DNA from: Anaerolineae bacterium
GTDB lineage: Bacteria; Chloroflexota; Anaerolineae; JACIWP01
Assembly: GCA_028275445.1 (NCBI GenBank)
Contig: JAPWUQ010000003.1
Location: forward strand, 1-43,660
Reading direction: 5' to 3'
Length of the DNA stretch: 43,660 nt
The notes below the pieces were generated by a model that worked only from the letters and a program-made list of their open reading frames with translations, ran no database searches and had not been told where the DNA came from. The first letter of the stretch is position 1. Each line of letters begins with the position of its first letter. The translations under genes were made by a program, and so were the position numbers. Positions 19,972-32,593 of the stretch are shown in pieces.

Positions 19972-21174
19972 ATGTCTACTTCGAAGCCGCTGACCGAACG
20001 CCGGCGCGTCCTGCAGGTGTTACAGCGTCAACCGACTGACCTCCTGCCCTGGCTGGTGGACCTGGAGACATGGTACACCGCCCGCCGGCGCACCAACACC
20101 CTGCCCCGCCCGCTGGCCGACCTGGAGCTGAACGAGATCCACCGCCTGCTGGCCGCCGGCCGGCTGGCGGCGGCTCCCGTCACCCGGTTTCGGCTCCATG
20201 GGGTGGAGGTGCACATCACGCACAACGAACAGACGATCTTCCGGGACTCGGAGCCGGCCCTGCCGTTCCCCCTCCCTATCACGCTGTTGCCATCCGACCG
20301 GCCGGGGCAGAGCATCATCACGTATAAGACGCCGGCCGGCAGGGCGGAGATCGTCTGCCAGATGGACGAAGCCCAGGCACGCGCCGCGGCCGGCCCCACC
20401 CTCCTCCGCCGCATCCTCGAGTACGATGAGGATCTCCCCGTCGTCAAATGGATATTGAATCACGCCGAGGCAGTGCCGGATTTCGAGAGGTTCCGCCAGA
20501 ACGAGGAAGCCGTTGGGGAAAATGGGTTTACCATCCCCCTGCTCGGCCGCATCCCCTTCCAGCAGTTACTGCTGGATTACATGCCGCCGGCGCGCGCCGA
20601 CCAGGCGGCCCGGGATGAGGAACGGGCCTTCCTCTACCTTCTCGATGCCCTGCGCGAGCACAGCCGGCACATCGTCGAGCTGGCCCTGGATTTGCCGGAC
20701 GCTCCCCTGCTGGCCTTCGACGACCATCTGGACGGCGCCCTGACCAAGCCGGCCCTCTTCCAGCGCTACTGCATGCCCTTCCTGCAGGAGATATCCGCCC
20801 GCCTGCATCTGGCCGGCCGGCGGTTGGGCAGTGCCATGGACGGCAATCTGAAGCCCCTCCTCCCACTTATCCCCCAGGCCGGCGTGGACGTGGTGCTGTC
20901 CTTCATGCCGGCCCCATCCAGCCCGCTCCCCTTCGCAGAGGCCTGGCATGCCTGGCACGAGGAGCTGATCATCTGGGGCGGCATCCCGCCGGCACTGCTG
21001 GAAGCGGGATTCCCGGAGGATGACTTCTACACCTGGATGGAGGACATGCTGACCTGCATCGAGCGGGAAGGGGGATTCATCATCCTGGGGGTCGGCGGGC
21101 AGATAAGCGGTTCCGCCGATATTCAGCGCCTGGCGCGCATCAGCGAGCGGCTGGGCCGCCGGCCGGAGCTATAA
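19972..21174 (+). CDS. Uroporphyrinogen decarboxylase-like (URO-D/MtaA-CmuA superfamily) protein
   Basis: R..Y.TP.G, F.RYCMPF, MDGNLK.LL, IIWGGIP..LL, FIILG.G TIM-barrel pattern. Confidence 0.72.
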   Translation: MSTSKPLTERRRVLQVLQRQPTDLLPWLVDLETWYTARRRTNTLPRPLADLELNEIHRLLAAGRLAAAPVTRFRLHGVEVHITHNEQTIFRDSEPALPFPLPITLLPSDRPGQSIITYKTPAGRAEIVCQMDEAQARAAAGPTLLRRILEYDEDLPVVKWILNHAEAVPDFERFRQNEEAVGENGFTIPLLGRIPFQQLLLDYMPPARADQAARDEERAFLYLLDALREHSRHIVELALDLPDAPLLAFDDHLDGALTKPALFQRYCMPFLQEISARLHLAGRRLGSAMDGNLKPLLPLIPQAGVDVVLSFMPAPSSPLPFAEAWHAWHEELIIWGGIPPALLEAGFPEDDFYTWMEDMLTCIEREGGFIILGVGGQISGSADIQRLARISERLGRRPEL

Positions 21175-21936
21175 CCCCCGCGCCAGCAGTACCACCAGGA
21201 GAACCACTGTACCGCCGGCCAATGCCAGGGCATCGGCACGGCGCATGCGGAGCTGGCGCCGGCTGGTGCGCCGGCTGGCCGCGCCGTAGCCCCGCGCCGC
21301 CAGCGCCATGGCGAGATGATCCACCGTCCGCAGAGCCGTGATGATAAGGGGGATCAGCACGGGGAGATAAGCACGCGCCGCCCGCAGGGGATTGCGCGGG
21401 ATGACCAGTCCGCGCGATTCCTGGGCCTCCATAATCTCACCGAAAATGCGCCCAAAGGTCGGGACAAACTGCATGGACATCGCCAGGGTCAGGCTGGCAG
21501 AATGCGGCAGGCCCAGCCGCGTCAGGCCGGCCACCAGCTCCCCCTGCTCCGTCGTCCACAGCAGGAGCGAAAAGGCGAAGGCCAGCGCATCCACGCGCAG
21601 GGCCATCGTCACGGCCTGCAGGACGCTGGCCGGCCCCACCGAGACCTGCCCCCACCGCCACCATACAGACGCCGCGCCGGCGCCCCAGGTAAAACTGCCC
21701 AATACCAGGATAACCAGGGTGATCGGCCACAGCGGCCGCCAAGCCGCCAGCAAACGCGCCGGCGGCACCCGGCTGGAGAGCGGCAGGATATGGAGCAGTG
21801 CCAGCAGTGCAAACATCGCCAGAGGATTTCGGATGAGCGCGGCCGCGACCACGAACAGCAGGGTCAGGCCGAACTTGGTGCGCGGGTCGAAACGGTGGTA
21901 CCAGGCATCTGCGCGGACATACAGGTCCAGCATCAT
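21169..21936 (-). CDS. ecfT: ECF transporter transmembrane T component
   Basis: DPRTK, FVP, AQESRG and ALAARGY (two XRX motifs). Confidence 0.92.
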   Translation of the reverse strand: MMLDLYVRADAWYHRFDPRTKFGLTLLFVVAAALIRNPLAMFALLALLHILPLSSRVPPARLLAAWRPLWPITLVILVLGSFTWGAGAASVWWRWGQVSVGPASVLQAVTMALRVDALAFAFSLLLWTTEQGELVAGLTRLGLPHSASLTLAMSMQFVPTFGRIFGEIMEAQESRGLVIPRNPLRAARAYLPVLIPLIITALRTVDHLAMALAARGYGAASRRTSRRQLRMRRADALALAGGTVVLLVVLLARGL

Positions 21937-22787
21937 TGCCCGACCTCCCCTCCGCCGGCCGCCGCCCTCACATACGCTTCGGCGAACTCCTCCGGCAGGA
22001 GCAGGTCCGCCGGCAGGCCGGCCAGGCCGGCTTCTCGCAGTGCATGCGCGGTGTGGGTCACCGGCAGGGGCTCCAGGCCGGCCTTGCGCAGAAGGGCCGC
22101 GTCGCCCAGCACGGCGCGCGCCGGCCCATCCGCCGCGATCTCGCCGGCCTGCATCAGCACGGCGCGGCCGGCGTACTGCGCCGCCAGCTCCAGATCATGG
22201 GTGATGAGCACCACCGCCGTGCCCTGGCGGTGCCTCTGCGCAACCACCTCGAGGAAATCCCGGGCACTGCCGGCATCCAGCCCGTTGGTCGGCTCGTCCA
22301 GGATGAGCAGGGCCGGCTCCTGCGCCAGCACGGCCGCCAGGGCCACCTTACGGCGCAGGCCGTAGCCTAACGCCGCTGGCGGTACATCGGCCGCATCCCG
22401 CAGTCCCAGTGCCTCCAGCGCGGCATTCACGCGCCTCTCCAGCTCCGCCCCCGAGACCCCCTGGAGCCGCGGGGCAAAAGCCACCTCCTCCCACACGCTG
22501 GCGGAAAAGATAATGCGGTCCGGATGCTGGGGGAGATAGGCGATCAGGCGCGCCCATTCCCCCACCTGCCGGCGGCGCGTGTCCACCCCCTCCACCAGCA
22601 CGCGCCCGCGCCAGGGCTTCAGCAGGCCGTTGAAATGCTTCACCAGGGTGCTCTTGCCGGAGCCGTTGCATCCCAGGACGGCCACCCATTCCCCGCGCCT
22701 GATCTCCAGCGAGACGCCGCGCAGGGCCGGCGGCCCGTCATCGTAGCGGAACCACAGCTCCTGGACGGAAACCAGCGGGGGCGTCAT
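21933..22787 (-). CDS. ecfA2: ECF transporter ATPase (A')
   Basis: GCNGSGKST, NGLLKP, LILDEPTNGLD, ITHD; ATGA overlap with the upstream ATPase. Confidence 0.9.
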   Translation of the reverse strand: MTPPLVSVQELWFRYDDGPPALRGVSLEIRRGEWVAVLGCNGSGKSTLVKHFNGLLKPWRGRVLVEGVDTRRRQVGEWARLIAYLPQHPDRIIFSASVWEEVAFAPRLQGVSGAELERRVNAALEALGLRDAADVPPAALGYGLRRKVALAAVLAQEPALLILDEPTNGLDAGSARDFLEVVAQRHRQGTAVVLITHDLELAAQYAGRAVLMQAGEIAADGPARAVLGDAALLRKAGLEPLPVTHTAHALREAGLAGLPADLLLPEEFAEAYVRAAAGGGEVGQ

Positions 22788-23686
22788 GGGCAAGCTCCAG
22801 CATGCGGGAGGGGACTGGAAGGAGCCTGCGACGGCATCGGGGCTAATGCCTGGATGGCCTCTTCCGGCGTGAGGAAGTCCCACCGCCGGCCCAGGCGCTC
22901 GTTCAACAGGCGCGCCGCACGCGCCATCTGGGGGACATACACCATGGAACGCTGGCCGGCCGCCAGGCGCCCATATACCTCGCGCGGCGTGCCGTCATCC
23001 ACGATTCGGCCTTCATCCAAGAGGATCACCCGGTCGGCGAAGCGGGCGGCCATCTCCGCATCCTGCGTCGCCATGATGACGGTAGCAGTGCGTTCCTTCG
23101 CCAGCCGGCTGATAACCTGCATGACCTCCTGCCGGCCCCGGGGGTCGAGGCCGGCAGTCGGTTCGTCCAGCACCAGGATATTGGGCGCCATCGCCAGGAC
23201 GGTGGCGATCGCCAGGCGCTTCTGCTCCCCACCGGAAAGCCCCCGCGGATTGCGCCGGCGCATGCCCTGCAGTCCCACTGCCTCCAGCGCCCAGTCAATG
23301 CGTTCCTCGATGGCCGGCGGCTCCCAGCCCAGCTCTTCCAGCCCGAAGGCGATCTCATCTTCCACGCTGGAGTTGAAGAGCTGGACCTCGGCCTCTTCGA
23401 ACACCATACCGACATGGCGCGCCAGTTCCGCCACACTGCGTTCGCTGGTGCGCATGCCCATGACTTCCACCGCGCCGGCGAATTCCCCGCCGGTCATGCT
23501 GGGGACGATGCCGTTCAGGCACAGGCAGAGCGTGGTCTTGCCGGCGCCCACCGCTCCGATGAGCGCGACGAACGAGCCGCTCTCGATCTCCAGGGAAACA
23601 TGCTGGAGGGCCGGCACCGGCCCATGTCCGGGCAGGGGCGAGGGGTAGGCGAAAGAGACATCAGTGATGCGAACGATGCTCGACAC
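22784..23686 (-). CDS. ecfA1: ECF transporter ATPase (A)
   Basis: GAVGAGKTT, VEDEIAFGLE, LSGGEQKRLAIA, LDEPTAGLDP; GTG start at 23686. Confidence 0.9.
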   Translation of the reverse strand: MSSIVRITDVSFAYPSPLPGHGPVPALQHVSLEIESGSFVALIGAVGAGKTTLCLCLNGIVPSMTGGEFAGAVEVMGMRTSERSVAELARHVGMVFEEAEVQLFNSSVEDEIAFGLEELGWEPPAIEERIDWALEAVGLQGMRRRNPRGLSGGEQKRLAIATVLAMAPNILVLDEPTAGLDPRGRQEVMQVISRLAKERTATVIMATQDAEMAARFADRVILLDEGRIVDDGTPREVYGRLAAGQRSMVYVPQMARAARLLNERLGRRWDFLTPEEAIQALAPMPSQAPSSPLPHAGACP

Positions 23687-24203
23687 GGCCCCTTCCGTAT
23701 TCCAGAACCGCCGGATAAGCCCGCGCGACCAGATACAGCAGGGGCATGCCCAGCAGGCCAAAGGCGCCCTGGACCGAGTTGCCGGGCAGTTCGGTCAGCG
23801 CCGGCCCCAGCCCGTACAGCGGGATCTCGACGAGGAAGTAGCCCAGCACAACCACTACCTCTCCCAGGAAAGCGCCTAACAGCATGGCGCCGGGGCGGTG
23901 CCGGCCCAGCCGGGCGACATAGCCGGCGAGAAAGCCCTGCAGGCCGTGGATAATCAGGGTCAGCGGTGCCCAGTGCGGGTATCCGCCGACCAGGTCAGCC
24001 AGAGCGGTCCCGCCGCCGGCGATGACAAACCCCAGCCAGGGACCGAACGCCAGCGCCGAAAAGGTTGCCGCCACATCCCCCAGGTGTATATAGCCCCGCG
24101 TGGGAGCCATGGGGATGCGCACCAGCAGTGTGAAGACGCAGGTCACGGCCACCATCACCGCCACGAGGGCGATCAGACGCACATCGGTTTTGCGCGACAC
24201 CAT
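23661..24203 (-). CDS. ECF transporter S component (HmpT/PdxU2-like; vitamin or precursor substrate inferred)
   Basis: GYIHLGD, FGP, ALADLVGGY..WAP.T.IIHG; about 6 TM; AAGGAGG RBS. Confidence 0.88.
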   Translation of the reverse strand: MVSRKTDVRLIALVAVMVAVTCVFTLLVRIPMAPTRGYIHLGDVAATFSALAFGPWLGFVIAGGGTALADLVGGYPHWAPLTLIIHGLQGFLAGYVARLGRHRPGAMLLGAFLGEVVVVLGYFLVEIPLYGLGPALTELPGNSVQGAFGLLGMPLLYLVARAYPAVLEYGRGRVEHRSHH

Positions 24204-24364: not shown

Positions 24365-25507
24365 TCAAATTTCCAGGGGCTCGCCCACACACAAGGTCGA
24401 GCAGTGATGCAGGACCTTCCACCCCTGCGCCGCCAGCGCCGGCTGGGGCATGGAAGCCTCATCCGGTTTGTCCGACAGGCCGAAGATGAGAGCGCCCTGC
24501 CGGCGCAGATAGAGGGCGGCCTGGCGCACCTCCTGGGTGATCAGGATGCGCTCCTGCAGGAGCTTCTCCAGGGGGATGCCCTCCGCCGGCGAGGGATCAT
24601 AGCGCGCCGCAGTCAGCTCGTACTCGCGATAGCGGAAGGCCTTGAACGGGGTGGGATCGCCGGCATCCCAGGCCGACAGCACCTCCTGATGCAGGTCCAG
24701 CAGGCCGGCGGCCTTCAGCTCCTCGCGCCGGCCGTCCACCAGATGGATGAAGGCATCGAACGATGGGATGCGCCCGGACTGATAGCCTTCCAGCACCTCC
24801 TCCAGCGTATACAGCCCGGCCCCGATGACGAGGCACAGGTAGGCCAGCAAATCCTGGTTATCCTGGGTGAACGGATGATAGACCTGCTGGTTCAAGGTGT
24901 CGTAGGCGCGCTGGAAGGCCGCATGGTCGAACTGTTCGCCCAGCGCCGAGGCCACGGTATCCTTCACCGCCTGCACCCGCACCAGGTCGATAATTTTGTC
25001 GTTGCGGCCGCGCGCCCCCACCAGCGTCTTATCCATGTCAATCACCACCGCCAGGTGCTCGTCGAACGCGAAGCCCTGCCGGCGGGCATATTCCAGGAAC
25101 TCCGCCAGGCCGGCCCAGCGGTTGGACAAGAAGACGCGCCCCTCGACGCGCCACTGCGGCGGCTCTGCCGGCCTGTCCGCGCCGATAAAGGCCAGCCCCT
25201 CCCAGCCGCCGGCGGCACATAGGTTGGCGAAGGCGTTGCCGTCGTTCATGTAAGTGTCGCCCAGGAACATCAGGCGCTTCAGCCGCGTCTGCGGCGCATC
25301 CAGCCGGCGTGCCGCCTCCAGGACCCGCGCCACCACCAGCGCATACTCCGGCTCCGCCTTGCGCGGGATGCGGTAGGCCGGCCAGCCCAATTCCTTCCAC
25401 AACTGCTCCAGCCCCGGCAGTCGGGGGTCAGACGGCTCCAGCCGGCGGTACACGATGAAATCGCCGAACAATTCTGCCATGCTGGCAGATCCGAAGATGT
25501 GCAGCAT
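24365..25507 (-). CDS. HAD-superfamily hydrolase-like protein, apparently circularly permuted
   Basis: Motifs in the order RKAEPEY (III), FLGDTYMND (IV), VIDMDKTL (I), helical cap, GLSDK (II); GGAGG RBS before ATG 25507. Confidence 0.7.
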   Translation of the reverse strand: MLHIFGSASMAELFGDFIVYRRLEPSDPRLPGLEQLWKELGWPAYRIPRKAEPEYALVVARVLEAARRLDAPQTRLKRLMFLGDTYMNDGNAFANLCAAGGWEGLAFIGADRPAEPPQWRVEGRVFLSNRWAGLAEFLEYARRQGFAFDEHLAVVIDMDKTLVGARGRNDKIIDLVRVQAVKDTVASALGEQFDHAAFQRAYDTLNQQVYHPFTQDNQDLLAYLCLVIGAGLYTLEEVLEGYQSGRIPSFDAFIHLVDGRREELKAAGLLDLHQEVLSAWDAGDPTPFKAFRYREYELTAARYDPSPAEGIPLEKLLQERILITQEVRQAALYLRRQGALIFGLSDKPDEASMPQPALAAQGWKVLHHCSTLCVGEPLEI

Positions 25508-25547
25508 AGTGTCCTCCATGGTGAGCATATCGCAAGCAGAGATTATG

Positions 25548-26957
25548 CTATAACCCGCCGGCCATGTCCAATCCCAGCTCGGCGTGAATATAGCGTACGG
25601 TGTCGTCTACATCCGCCTCCGGCACCACGAACGAGATGTTGTACTCGCTGGCCGACTGGGCGACGGAAATGACCCGCGTGCCGCGCCGGCCCAGCGCGGC
25701 GAAGGCACGCGGCACCGTTTGCGCCGGCTGGGCGCTGGTGCGCCCGACCACCGAAATCGTGCCGACCTCCTCGCGCACGCCGATGTGCGAGATGATGCCC
25801 CGCTGTAATTCCCCCGAGAGGGCACGCTCCAGCACGCGCACACAGTGCCGCTGGTCCTGCCGGCGCACCACCAGGTGCAGACTGCGCTCCGAAAGCGGCT
25901 GGGTGAAGAGCAGGATATCCACGCCGGCATCCGCCAGGCTCTCCAGCACGCGCGCCCCTACCAGCGGCCCCCATTCCTGGCTGTTGCCGGCGATGCCGAT
26001 GAGGCTCAGCCCTTTGGTAGAGATAATGGCCGGCATGGCCCGGCGGTTCGGCGAGGGCGAGCTGGTGATCAGCGTGCCAGGGTGCGATGGGTTGAAGCTG
26101 TTGAGGATGCGCAGGGGGATGCCGGCCTGATGCACCGGCGCGACGGTCTTGGGATGGAGCACATCCGCGCCGTAATAGGCCAGCTCCTCCGCCTCCTCAT
26201 AGCTCAGCTCGTCCAGCGTGTGCGCCTCCGGCACGATATTCGGATCCGCCGTCAGGATGCCGTCCACATCGGTCCATATCTGCACCTCTTCCGCCCCCAG
26301 ACAGGCGCCGAGGATGGCGGCCGAGTAGTCGCTTCCACCCCGCCCCAGCACGGTGGTCACTCCCTCTTTCGTCGCCCCGACGTAGCCGGTCACCACCGGC
26401 ACGATGCCGCGCTCCAGCAGGGGCGGGATCAAGGCCTGCACGCGCTCCCGGGTGAGGTCCATGATGGGGCGCGCCGCGCCGAAATGGTCATCGGTGATGA
26501 TGAGCTGTGTGGCGACGATATCGCGCGCCCGAATGCCGCGCGCCGAGAGCGCCGCCGCCAGGATGCGCGCCGAGAGCTGTTCGCCGATGGAAGAGACGGC
26601 ATCATAGCCGCGCGGGGTGATTTCCCCGAGCACGGCGATGCTCCGGCAGAGCAGTTCAAAATCGTGCAGGCGGTCCTCAATGAGGCCGGCCACCTCCACC
26701 CGCTCCACACTGCGCGCCAGAAGCTGGTCCACCGCCTGCAGATGCCGCTCCAGAAGCGTCGCCTTGGCCTCGCGATAGACCCTGTCCTCACCGCGGCTGG
26801 CCGCACGCGCCGCCTCGATCAGCAGATTGGTCACCCCGCTCATGGCAGAGACGACGATGACCGGCTCGCGCGACAGATGCGACTCGATGATATCCATGAC
26901 GGCGGACATTCGCTCCGCGTCACCTACCGAAGTCCCCCCAAACTTCATCACGATCAT
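25548..26957 (-). CDS. lysC: Aspartate kinase with two ACT domains
   Basis: MKFGGTSVG, VVSAMSGVT, SIGEQLSA, LGRGGSDYSA, WTDVDGILTADP, VLHP. Confidence 0.95.
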   Translation of the reverse strand: MIVMKFGGTSVGDAERMSAVMDIIESHLSREPVIVVSAMSGVTNLLIEAARAASRGEDRVYREAKATLLERHLQAVDQLLARSVERVEVAGLIEDRLHDFELLCRSIAVLGEITPRGYDAVSSIGEQLSARILAAALSARGIRARDIVATQLIITDDHFGAARPIMDLTRERVQALIPPLLERGIVPVVTGYVGATKEGVTTVLGRGGSDYSAAILGACLGAEEVQIWTDVDGILTADPNIVPEAHTLDELSYEEAEELAYYGADVLHPKTVAPVHQAGIPLRILNSFNPSHPGTLITSSPSPNRRAMPAIISTKGLSLIGIAGNSQEWGPLVGARVLESLADAGVDILLFTQPLSERSLHLVVRRQDQRHCVRVLERALSGELQRGIISHIGVREEVGTISVVGRTSAQPAQTVPRAFAALGRRGTRVISVAQSASEYNISFVVPEADVDDTVRYIHAELGLDMAGGL

Positions 26958-26982: not shown

Positions 26983-28200
26983 TCACAGGATGGAATCCAG
27001 CGCCTGCTGTAAATCGGCGATCAGGTCGTCCGCATCCTCGATGCCCAGGGCATAGCGCACCAGCTCATCCTTGATGCCCATGCGCTCGCGCTCCTGCTTG
27101 TCCAGCGCGAAATGGGACATCAGCGCCGGCTGTTCGATGATGGACTCCACACCGCCCAGGCTGGGCCCGACGTACGGGATCTTCAACGCATCGATAAAGC
27201 GCATGGTGCGCTCCATATCCCCTTCGATCTCGAAGCTGACCACCCCGCCGAAGCCGGCCATCAGCTTTTTGGCGATGGCATGGTCCGGATGCGAAGGGAG
27301 ACCGGGGTAAAAGACCCGCCGCACCGCCGGGTGGGATTCCAGGAACTCCGCCACCCGCTGGCCGTTCTCGTTGTGGCGCTGTATGCGCAGGGAAAGGGTC
27401 TTCATGCCGCGCAGGAGCAAATAGGCGGCGTGCGGGTCAATGGTCGGCCCCAGCATGTTTTGGGCGTCCTTGAGCTTGTGGATGATCTCCGCCGGCCCCG
27501 CCACCGAGCCGGCCAGCAGGTCGTTGTGCCCGCCCAGGTACTTGGTGCCGCTGTGGATCACCAGATCGGCGCCGAATTCCGCCGGCCGGATGTTGAAGGG
27601 CGTGGCGAAGGTGCTGTCCACTGCCAGCAGACAGCCGTGCCGGCGGGCGATCTCCACCAGCCGCGGCAGGTCCACTACCCGCAGGTACGGGTTCGTCGGC
27701 AGTTCCGTAAAAATGAGGCGCGTGCGCGGCGTGACGGCGGCTTCCAGCGCCTCCAGGTCCTCCACCGGCACGAAGGTGACCTCGATGCCCAGCCGGCGCA
27801 GGAACGCCAGGGCGAACTCCCGCGTCTTGCGGTAGCAGTCCTCGGTGATGATGAGGTGGTCGCCGGCGGAGAGCAGGGTCAGGAAGACGGTGGTGATGGC
27901 CGCCATGCCCGAGGCCACCAGCATGGCCTCCTCGCACCCATCCAGCTCGGCCAGCTTGCGCTCCACCGTCTCGCGGGTGGGGTTGGTGTAGCGGCCGTAT
28001 TCCCCGCGCTGGAGGGGCAGTTCGGCCATCTTCCTCTGCATGTGGGCGATGACGGCCTGGCTGTTCTCGAAGGTATAGGTGGATGTCTGGATGATCGGCG
28101 TGGTCAGCGAGCCGTAAGGCTTCTGACGGGATTCGCCGGCGTGCACCGCACGGGTGGAAAAACCGCGGGGGGCGGCCGGCCGGGTGTTCTCTTCTGCCAT
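26983..28200 (-). CDS. metB: Cystathionine gamma-synthase (plant-type), Cys/Met PLP enzyme
   Basis: [36 protein letters not shown] (PLP Lys), SLGGVES; lies behind a SAM riboswitch. Confidence 0.85.
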
Positions 28201-28342: not shown

Positions 28343-28475
<133 letters not shown>

Positions 28476-31378: not shown

Positions 31379-32593
31379 ATGCCGCGGACACCCTTCGGAA
31401 CCGACACCCTTCCCCCGCCCCTGATGACCTCCGATCCTGGCTCGTTCGCCGAGGACACCTTTCGCAACCGCCTGCCGGCCTTCCTGGACGAATTATGCCG
31501 GCTCAATCCTTTCCCGCCCGAGATTCGCGCCGCCCTCATGAGCCTGAAGCGCGAGATCACGCACGGACTGCCGGTGCGCCGGCTGGCCGAGATGACCCCG
31601 GACCGCGCGGCATGGGACGAGGTCTGGTCGCGCTTCATCGGCCGAAACTGGTTCCAGCTCCACTGGTACCCGGCGGAGGCGTACTTTTACCGCCGCGTCC
31701 TGGAAGCCACACGCTATTTCCAGCCCGGCCCCTGGCAGGGCCGGGACCCTTTCGCACCGTACAAGGAGCAGGAGCTGGGGCCTCGCAGTCAGAGCTGGGC
31801 AAGCTTCGAGCGCGCCCTCGGCCGGCTCCCGACGGAGCACCTGCCGCGCCTGAACGAACTGCTCCTGCTGGACCTGTGGGGCAACCGCGCCGACCTGAGC
31901 ATCAAGGAAGTGGCGGAATCGGCCCACGCCGGCCTGGCCGATGAAACCAATGAACGCCTCCTGATCGACCACCGCCCGCAGGTACTGGAGCGCTTCACCC
32001 GCAACCACCGCGTCCGACGGGTGGACTTCATCCTGGACAACGCCGGCCTGGAACTGCTCTTCGACCTGGCGCTGGCCGACCACCTGCTGACCATCTGGCA
32101 TCTGGAGCGCATTGTCTTCCACCTGAAGCCCCAGCCGTTCTTTGTGTCGGATGCCATGCCGCAGGACGTCATGCAAGCCCTGGAGGCCATGATGAACCGG
32201 CCGAGGTTGGCCCCCCTGGCCAGCCGGCTGATGAACGCCATCTCGCACGACCGCCTACAGTTGGTGACCCATCCTTTCTGGGTCAGCGCGTACAGCTTCG
32301 CCTATATGCCGGACGACCTGCGCCGGCAGTTGGCGGAGGCCGACCTGGTCCTCCTGAAAGGGGATGCCAATTACCGCCGGCTCCTGGACGACCGCCGCTG
32401 GCCGCCCACCGATTCGCTGGAGGAGCGCACGCGCTATTTCCCCGCCCCCTTCGTCACCCTGCGCACCGCCAAAGCCGAGGTCATCGTGGATCTGACGGAG
32501 GAGCGCGTGGCAGAGCTGGATGCCAAGGACCCCCGCTGGCGCATCAACGGCCAGTACGGCCTTATCCGCTTCTGCGCCGGCGCCCGGAGGTAG
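31379..32593 (+). CDS. Damage-control phosphatase, ARMT1/DUF89 family
   Basis: E.YFYRR, DPF..K, LWGNRADLS, LDNAG.EL..D, PFFVSD, KGDANYRRL, LRT.K. Confidence 0.9.
   Translation: MPRTPFGTDTLPPPLMTSDPGSFAEDTFRNRLPAFLDELCRLNPFPPEIRAALMSLKREITHGLPVRRLAEMTPDRAAWDEVWSRFIGRNWFQLHWYPAEAYFYRRVLEATRYFQPGPWQGRDPFAPYKEQELGPRSQSWASFERALGRLPTEHLPRLNELLLLDLWGNRADLSIKEVAESAHAGLADETNERLLIDHRPQVLERFTRNHRVRRVDFILDNAGLELLFDLALADHLLTIWHLERIVFHLKPQPFFVSDAMPQDVMQALEAMMNRPRLAPLASRLMNAISHDRLQLVTHPFWVSAYSFAYMPDDLRRQLAEADLVLLKGDANYRRLLDDRRWPPTDSLEERTRYFPAPFVTLRTAKAEVIVDLTEERVAELDAKDPRWRINGQYGLIRFCAGARR

Follow-up and report, generated by a model that had tools for sequence, protein, structure and literature searches.

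We describe here a family of unannotated proteins, represented by protein X, which is very probably a HAD-superfamily enzyme with a circularly permuted chain and which probably phosphorylates homoserine in place of ThrB. The gene was found on contig JAPWUQ010000003.1 of an Anaerolineae bacterium (assembly GCA_028275445.1); the window, meaning the whole stretch of DNA that was analyzed, is 43,660 nucleotides long. For both statements taken together, that X is a permuted HAD phosphotransferase and that it forms O-phosphohomoserine, we have moderate confidence. In Anaerolineae and some other Chloroflexota, X most likely stands in for homoserine kinase as a new, non-orthologous enzyme. This functional assignment draws on motif conservation, predicted topology, the profile similarity of the permuted chain, operon context, fusions to aspartate kinase (AK) and complementarity with thrB, and from these we infer which reaction X catalyzes, what its individual residues do and that O-phosphohomoserine is used for methionine.

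24365..25507, minus strand: coding sequence of protein X, 380 amino acids, placed from the open reading frame, a Shine-Dalgarno sequence and the N termini of homologs.

The minus-strand frame is open from 24365 to 25528, and translation from a second in-frame ATG, upstream at 25528, would yield a 387-residue version of X, from which all residue numbers below are counted. The start at ATG 25507 appears likelier than the one at 25528 because a GGAGGA sequence (25517-25512) lies 4 nt upstream of it and homologs start at the same methionine. The same start had been chosen in an earlier reading made from the letters alone (the sequence-only reading), and both the Shine-Dalgarno spacing and the homolog N termini agree with it.

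That reading had also proposed that X contains every catalytic residue type of a HAD enzyme but carries the motifs in the order III-IV-I-cap-II. The four strings on which it relied, PRKAEPEYA (55-63), LMFLGDTYMND (86-96), VVIDMDKTL (161-169) and LRRQGALIFGLSDK (341-354), are all found in the translation, the order holds, and the four motifs are nearly invariant across the family. The elements of the active site and the cap map as follows.

25358..25366, minus strand: motif III, P55-R56-K57, with the lysine just ahead of helix 60-77 and aligned to the K of HAD_2 KPxP.
25241..25261, minus strand: motif IV, G90-D91-T92-x-x-N95-D96, at the end of strand 85-90 (S4) and aligned to HAD_2 GDt..D.
25025..25039, minus strand: motif I, D164-M-D166-K-T168, at the end of strand 159-164 (S1), providing the nucleophile Asp and Asp+2.
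24500..25015, minus strand: all-helical cap, residues 172-343, inserted directly after motif I (C1 position), delimited by DSSP and conservation.
24467..24475, minus strand: motif II, S352-D353-K354, after strand 347-351 (S2), with S352 aligned to the HAD_2 motif II Thr.

In 37 homologs with 51-95% identity, P55, R56, K57, G90, D91, T92 and D96 are invariant, as are D164, D166, K167, T168, S352, D353 and K354. We then used a wider set of 191 full-length members (28-95% identity), in which the motif residues are kept in 186-191 sequences: K57 in 188 (Arg in the other 3), G90 in 191, D91 in 189, D96 in 190, D164 and D166 in 190 each, T168 in 186 and S352 in 190 (Thr in 1). As far as the sequences go, the motif strings are not chance look-alikes. 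Motif I aligns to the DlDGT of both HAD_2 and PF12710-type HADs, and motif IV is spaced one residue wider than GDxxxD.

In the canonical HAD chain the elements follow each other as S1 (motif I), cap, S2 (motif II), S3, K helix (motif III), S4 (motif IV) and S5, whereas X reads K helix (III), S4 (IV), S5, linker, S1 (I), cap, S2 (II) and S3. The last third of a HAD chain would have been moved to the front, with the new termini falling between S3 and the motif III helix. Since the motif order I-II-III-IV is not found in X, we regard the protein as a permuted form of the superfamily and not as one of its standard members. As had been anticipated in the sequence-only reading, standard HAD profiles miss the protein. 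Pfam and NCBIfam scans returned nothing beyond a chance NCBIfam match of 11.8 bits to an unrelated model, Pfam searched with all 37 members at a threshold of E<=10 produced no match to a HAD family, and the family profile searched against PDB sequences recovered no HAD, giving only chance helical matches to retroviral capsids (best E 0.0018). The permutation would explain the missing domain annotation of thousands of sequences of this family.

The permutation was examined directly by comparing, with hhalign, a 191-sequence profile of X with a 15-sequence HAD_2 profile made from HAD_2 genes of relatives' genomes. In the native order, the full-length profile scored 13.2% and the profile without the cap 55.6%, with motif I alone aligned. 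The permuted profile (153-172 + 330-387 + 40-152) scored 85.9% with an E value of 5.2e-6 over 136 columns and aligned all four motifs, pairing avviDlDKT with avlFDlDGT, strand S2 and S352 with the motif II Thr, PRK57-x-E-P with KPxP, and yiGDT..nD with VGDt..D. When five structural blocks of X were tried in all 120 orders, the best 8 of the 120 reached 92-95% (E 4e-8 to 6e-7), all of them with S1 before S2 before K-S4, while the worst 3 started with K-S4 and gave about 28%, compared to the 55.6% of the native order. Reversing the template or the query brought the score down to 0.3-0.4%, and twenty column shuffles gave at most 3.7%. X scored 62.6% with a PF12710-type HAD profile; as reference pairs, HAD_2 scored 97.6% with PF12710 and 1.3% with the receiver domain. 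In a protein-language-model atlas the nearest annotated neighbors of X were HAD_2/Hydrolase clusters only (0.76-0.77), which we take as a lead only.

An alternative is that X is not homologous to HAD enzymes and is instead an independent flavodoxin-like or receiver-like alpha/beta domain of strand order 2-1-3-4-5, carrying a helical insert and a convergent acid-rich phosphate site, in which case it may still have the same role in the pathway. X does resemble CheY-like receivers in having an acidic pair, a phospho-Asp and an S/T in that order along the chain and in its proposed phospho-Asp chemistry, and a non-sequential similarity between HAD and CheY active sites is on record (PMC10400377, in a passage citing Ridder and Dijkstra 1999). 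Unlike these receivers, however, X has a DxDxT motif and an inserted cap, and its Lys precedes the sheet instead of following it. X also shows no profile similarity to them, scoring 0.3-0.6% against a 30-sequence receiver-domain profile, on which basis we rejected receiver-domain homology, whereas the motifs become collinear with HAD_2 once the chain is permuted (85.9-95%). The four motifs also come with HAD-specific details, namely hhhhDxDxT, a cap directly after S1, a KPxP-like PRKxEP and GDxxxxD. Furthermore, the 3-2-1-4-5 sheet of a HAD enzyme permuted at S3/S4 becomes exactly 2-1-3-4-5, so generic matches to such folds are expected of a permuted HAD. We therefore regard convergence as very unlikely.

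A model of X was built with AlphaFold2 from the 37-sequence alignment and its secondary structure was assigned with DSSP. The model has a pLDDT of 95.2 and a pTM of 0.91. Its N-terminal part contains strand 10-15, K57 followed by helix 60-77, strand 85-90 followed by D91, and helix 93-107 starting near D96. The middle part contains strand 110-116, a hairpin at 126-135, helix 140-150 and strand 159-164 with D164 as its last residue, and the C-terminal part consists of the all-helical block 172-343, strand 347-351 followed by S352, helix 363-367 and strand 378-382 (S3) at the end of the chain. In this predicted structure every motif sits at the strand or helix end expected for HAD enzymes, in line with the topology first proposed from the translation.

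X shares with canonical C1-cap HADs (HAD_2, PF13419, of the beta-phosphoglucomutase and phosphoglycolate phosphatase type) the four motifs, their equivalent strand and helix ends and the position of the cap after S1. It differs from them in its permuted chain, in the motif IV that is longer by one residue (GDTxxND) and in a Lys that replaces the usual Gly of motif I (DxDKT). The cap itself comprises ∼170 residues, of which some 17 are polar and nearly invariant among the 191 members (R173, R175, N176, D177, R184, T221, D223, N224, Q225, D226, H280, D291, K296, R299, E302, T331, and E333). We looked for a convincing structural relative of the cap and found none. A Foldseek search of the whole model against the PDB gave LSD1 as the only match at E<=1e-3, which we rejected as spurious given its TM of 0.13, and the best match of the fragment 153-387 had an E value of 0.39.

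The region upstream of X in the window contains the following elements.

25548..26957, minus strand: AK (AA_kinase and ACT domains by Pfam; NCBIfam TIGR00657, 391.7 bits), in the same operon as X.
26983..28200, minus strand: Cys/Met-metabolism pyridoxal phosphate (PLP) enzyme of the cystathionine gamma-synthase (CGS)/sulfhydrylase family (PF01053, 1.1e-138).
28343..28475, minus strand: SAM-I (S-adenosylmethionine) riboswitch (RF00162, 84.9 bits; gathering threshold 44.4), heading the PLP-AK-X operon.

The stop codon of AK lies 19-40 nt upstream of X. The best NCBIfam matches of the PLP enzyme are all under equivalog cutoffs; its gene likely starts at ATG 28200, as judged from the translation, and the open frame continues to 28362. 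Of 11 related PLP-type loci tested, 9 have a SAM riboswitch 5' of the PLP gene, and the remaining 2 are missing the upstream sequence.

We clustered the open reading frames lying within 6 kb of X at 80 loci from named Chloroflexota metagenome-assembled genomes (MAGs) and annotated one representative per cluster. A same-strand AK was found at 52 of the 80 loci, an archaeal-type aspartate-semialdehyde dehydrogenase (Asd) directly upstream of X at 47, a threonine synthase (ThrC; TIGR00260, 222.6 bits) directly downstream at 47, with 40 of these on the same strand, and a CGS-like PLP enzyme nearby at 15. Fifty-three loci are well flanked, with at least 3 kb upstream and at least 1.5 kb downstream of X, and at 50 of them an AK, Asd, ThrC or CGS-like gene lies within 6 kb. 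The arrangement was AK-Asd-X-ThrC in 21, PLP-AK-Asd-X in 8, AK-X-ThrC in 8 and PLP-AK-X in 3, with other partial combinations in 10 and none of these genes in 3. One MAG has two X loci: L011 is of the methionine type, and at L027, which was scored as AK...X-ThrC, AK lies about 4.6 kb upstream. The complete genome G068 has AK, Asd and X next to each other, with a 4-nt overlap between Asd and X, and these two genes are also adjacent and overlapping at the one locus annotated from family f65, which belongs to another class. At this f65 locus (L159:6758-8062, minus strand), the same-strand gene after X is not thrC and has weak alpha/beta-hydrolase matches (PGAP1-like, DUF7379).

The occurrence of X in both threonine operons and SAM-regulated methionine operons points to the intermediates that the two share in the stretch from aspartate semialdehyde to ThrC or a gamma-synthase, namely homoserine and O-phosphohomoserine. 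The association with AK extends to fusion proteins AK+ACT+X of 841-896 amino acids, which form 7 clusters at 90% identity. A structure prediction of the AK+X complex scored 0.00 against a mark of 0.32 and counts neither for nor against binding. At 90% identity the family has more than 2462 clusters (a lower bound) and at 50% identity 350, and the function-describing names among the matches listed are all "hypothetical protein" from Anaerolineae or Chloroflexi sources.

We next compared the distribution of X with that of the known homoserine kinases in 201 Anaerolineae genomes of at least 90% completeness. X is present in 94 of them and thrB scores over its cutoff in 68; 93 genomes have X only, 67 thrB only, one (G181) both and 40 neither. 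Fisher's test gives p = 1e-23, a value that is overstated since the genomes are kin. More weight should be given to families f14, f9, and f49, in which the X type and the thrB type are mixed but occur in different genomes; in f14, for example, thrB is found in 6 of 7 genomes and the seventh, which lacks it, has X. Homoserine dehydrogenase (Hom) is present in 182 of the 201 genomes, including 89 of the 94 with X and both same-genus relatives of the bacterium studied here. In that genus (G000, G037, and G076) we searched for thrB, thrB_alt and ThrH and found none, and in the complete genomes G068 and G130 none of thrB, thrB_alt, ThrH and TIGR02535 scored over cutoff. In a phylum-wide sample X was found in 18 of 201 genomes, among them all 14 of family f65, where thrB was over cutoff in none of the 5 genomes tested (best score 38 bits).

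Some genomes are exceptions to this complementary pattern. G031, G102 and G132, which are complete and belong to genus g32, carry X together with a ThrH-like HSK-PSP of 209-232 bits (cutoff 223.4), G140 has X together with a HomK over cutoff, and G181 has X together with thrB. In g32, X and the ThrH-like protein could duplicate each other's function, or they could work with different donors or in different branches. Of the 40 genomes with neither X nor thrB, 10 also lack Hom. The other 30, for example those of families f23 and f24 and genus g73, have Hom, and the class may contain at least one more unrecognized type of homoserine kinase.

These 30 genomes also bear on a different possibility, namely that X acts on aspartyl phosphate or aspartate semialdehyde in some other step, a bypass or editing reaction for instance, and that homoserine is phosphorylated by an enzyme yet to be recognized. 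As they have neither X nor thrB, other unrecognized homoserine kinases would have to exist in the class. The tightest partners of X, moreover, are not Hom but AK, through the fusions, and Asd, through its position directly upstream and the overlaps in G068 and the f65 locus. We nevertheless see only a slim chance for this explanation. No HAD reaction on aspartate semialdehyde that would make chemical sense is known, the pathway has no other gap (Hom being present in nearly all genomes with X), the complementarity is specifically with thrB, and the downstream partners ThrC and CGS-like enzyme both use or could use O-phosphohomoserine.

It is also conceivable that X is a permuted HAD phosphatase, either a missing phosphoserine phosphatase (a SerB analog) or an enzyme trimming O-phosphohomoserine or aspartyl phosphate for control or damage control. 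DxD-bearing HADs are mostly phosphatases, as is well established, and D166 at the Asp+2 position is as compatible with a phosphatase as with a mutase or a transferase. SerB-like subfamily-IB HADs (E<=1e-15) were found in 20 of 94 genomes with X compared to 39 of 68 with thrB, and serB is among the commonest annotation gaps mentioned in a passage of the GapMind 2026 preprint. The SerB-like pattern is only a trend, though, while X and thrB nearly exclude each other (1 genome with both among the 161 carriers), and X lies between Asd and ThrC or beside AK, with neither serA nor serC among the annotated clusters of conserved neighbors. Were X a phosphatase, the genomes that have it along with Hom and ThrC would remain without a homoserine kinase, and the hydrolysis of O-phosphohomoserine or aspartyl phosphate inside a biosynthetic operon or an AK fusion would be futile. 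A phosphatase is thus quite unlikely, and a ThrH-like dual activity with phosphoserine as the donor would bring this alternative back into the homoserine phosphotransferase assignment.

In the methionine branch, MetA was found in 7 of the 201 class genomes and in none of the 94 with X, MetX-like genes were found in 83, of which 56 have X, and 38 genomes with X, including those of the genus studied here, lack both. In the genome of the bacterium itself (92.6% complete, 318 contigs) we searched for MetA, a real MetX, thrB and Hom (PF00742) and found none, while two thrC genes are present. The missing Hom raised the possibility that X replaces it, which we rejected since Hom occurs in 182 of the 201 genomes, same-genus genomes and 89 genomes with X included; its absence here is probably an assembly gap in the 318-contig MAG and not biology. 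The same genome encodes a protein like the cofactor-independent phosphoglycerate mutase (iPGM) that matches TIGR02535 with 220 bits (cutoff 446). This protein was rejected as a homoserine kinase because such sub-cutoff matches occur in 143 of the 201 genomes irrespective of X or thrB, and it is probably ApgM.

By analogy with HAD chemistry, D164 of X would take the phosphoryl group from the donor, D91, D96 and D164/D166 would hold Mg2+ (D164/D166 through the backbone), S352 and K57 would hold the transferred phosphate and D166 would act as the general acid/base. The phosphoryl group would then pass from D164 to the gamma-hydroxyl of L-homoserine, giving O-phospho-L-homoserine, with the large helical cap closing over donor and homoserine. 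In the AK-Asd-X-ThrC operons, threonine synthase would consume the O-phosphohomoserine made by X. In plants, the CGS route uses O-phosphohomoserine, and in the lineages without MetA and MetX the CGS-like PLP enzyme of the SAM-riboswitch operon would use it as well.

As for the phosphate donor, ATP is our tentative choice and would make X a true kinase. L-Aspartyl-4-phosphate on the one hand, and phosphoserine or another phosphoester on the other, are each rather unlikely, and we are doubtful that the donor is something else altogether. The lower count of SerB-like HADs in the genomes with X is a weak hint of a phosphoserine donor, as in a ThrH-like enzyme. With aspartyl phosphate, the phosphoryl group of the AK product would move to Asp164, which forms an acyl phosphate by the same chemistry, and from there to homoserine. 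This would explain why X is coupled to AK and Asd (operons in two classes, overlaps and 7 fusion clusters) and not to Hom, and AK would then be the only enzyme to spend ATP on the two phosphorylations in the threonine/methionine pathway. That X is an L-aspartyl-4-phosphate:L-homoserine phosphotransferase is nevertheless unlikely in our estimate.

The closest functional analog of X is ThrH of Pseudomonas aeruginosa, a phosphoserine:homoserine phosphotransferase/phosphoserine phosphatase (TIGR02137, HSK-PSP). ThrH has an Asp nucleophile, the canonical order I-II-III-IV and a small subfamily-IB cap, whereas in X the order is III-IV-I-II and the cap has 170 residues, and X does not match TIGR02137. 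Also, ThrH is an accessory enzyme while X appears to be the main enzyme in its genomes. ThrH, which is cited in Appendix 3 of the GapMind 2026 preprint, is a HAD enzyme that makes O-phosphohomoserine by phosphoryl transfer and can replace ThrB. X has the same proposed product and pathway position as ThrB (GHMP, TIGR00191), ThrB_alt (TIGR00938) and HomK/ThrB2 (TIGR02535, iPGM-like), but its fold is unrelated to theirs and it matches no NCBIfam model of those families. The distribution of X is like that reported for HomK/ThrB2, which is complementary to thrB and colocalized with thrC and asd (Ashniev 2022, PMC9026213; GapMind 2026 preprint). HomK is described there as a non-orthologous replacement found by the same kind of evidence and later confirmed by complementation (PMC9026213; GapMind 2026 preprint). 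Full-text literature searches, which did not extend to subscription-only papers, turned up nothing on this family, on a permuted form among the HAD enzymes, one of the best-studied superfamilies, or on HAD-like homoserine kinases from Chloroflexota.

According to passages of the GapMind 2026 preprint, homoserine kinase is one of four steps behind most of the unexplained gaps in amino acid biosynthesis in prototrophic prokaryotes; thrB is missing in 16 of 208 prototroph genomes, and unknown families are speculated to fill such gaps. If our assignment is true, X would close the homoserine kinase gap in a second Chloroflexota lineage and in much of Anaerolineae, where 94 of the 201 genomes sampled carry it, and this would mean fewer false auxotrophy calls in a phylum known mainly from metagenomes. 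A Pfam or NCBIfam model of the family would annotate thousands of sequences. The CGS-like-AK-X operon under a SAM riboswitch, in genomes without MetA and MetX, points to a plant-like, O-phosphohomoserine-dependent methionine route in bacteria. The order of X is also that of CheY-like receivers and bears on the relation of the two phospho-aspartate folds; in the unlikely case of the L-aspartyl-4-phosphate:L-homoserine phosphotransferase, X would also be the first natural HAD with a CheY-like strand order and a living intermediate between them.

One representative, P0132 (528 amino acids), has a Prok-JAB (JAMM) domain fused to the C terminus of X. JAB domains go together with sulfur-carrier proteins, and this fusion hints at a tie to a sulfur-carrier (thiocarboxylate) dependent synthesis of homocysteine from O-phosphohomoserine. 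A thiocarboxylate route from O-phosphohomoserine to homocysteine is described in a passage of the GapMind 2026 preprint.

Downstream of X, the window contains a complete energy-coupling factor (ECF) transport module.

23661-24203, minus strand: ECF S component of the PF07155 ECF-ribofla_trS family.
22784-23761 and 21933-22883, minus strand: two EcfA ATPases.
21169-21936, minus strand: EcfT.

The module (21169-24203, minus strand) comes next after X. Between the two lies an AT-rich spacer of 161 nt that contains three sigma-70-like sites (24368-24266). The same X-ECF arrangement is found at L008, the locus of the nearest relative (92% identity). The place of the module after an operon with a SAM riboswitch suggests a methionine-related substrate or a vitamin. 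On the opposite strand, 3 kb from the X operon, lies a gene for an ARMT1-like damage-control phosphatase (31379-32593, plus strand; PF01937, 8.8e-62), which is probably unrelated to it.

Finally, six distant members of the family with 30-35% identity to X, P0210, P0229, P0236, P0244 and P0249 (576-620 amino acids) and P0224 (816 amino acids), carry N-terminal extensions of 200-430 residues with no Pfam match. In the two that were read, P0210 and P0224, motif I takes the variant forms DLDQT and DMDRT and motif II is SDRP, and these extended members may have other substrates or regulation.

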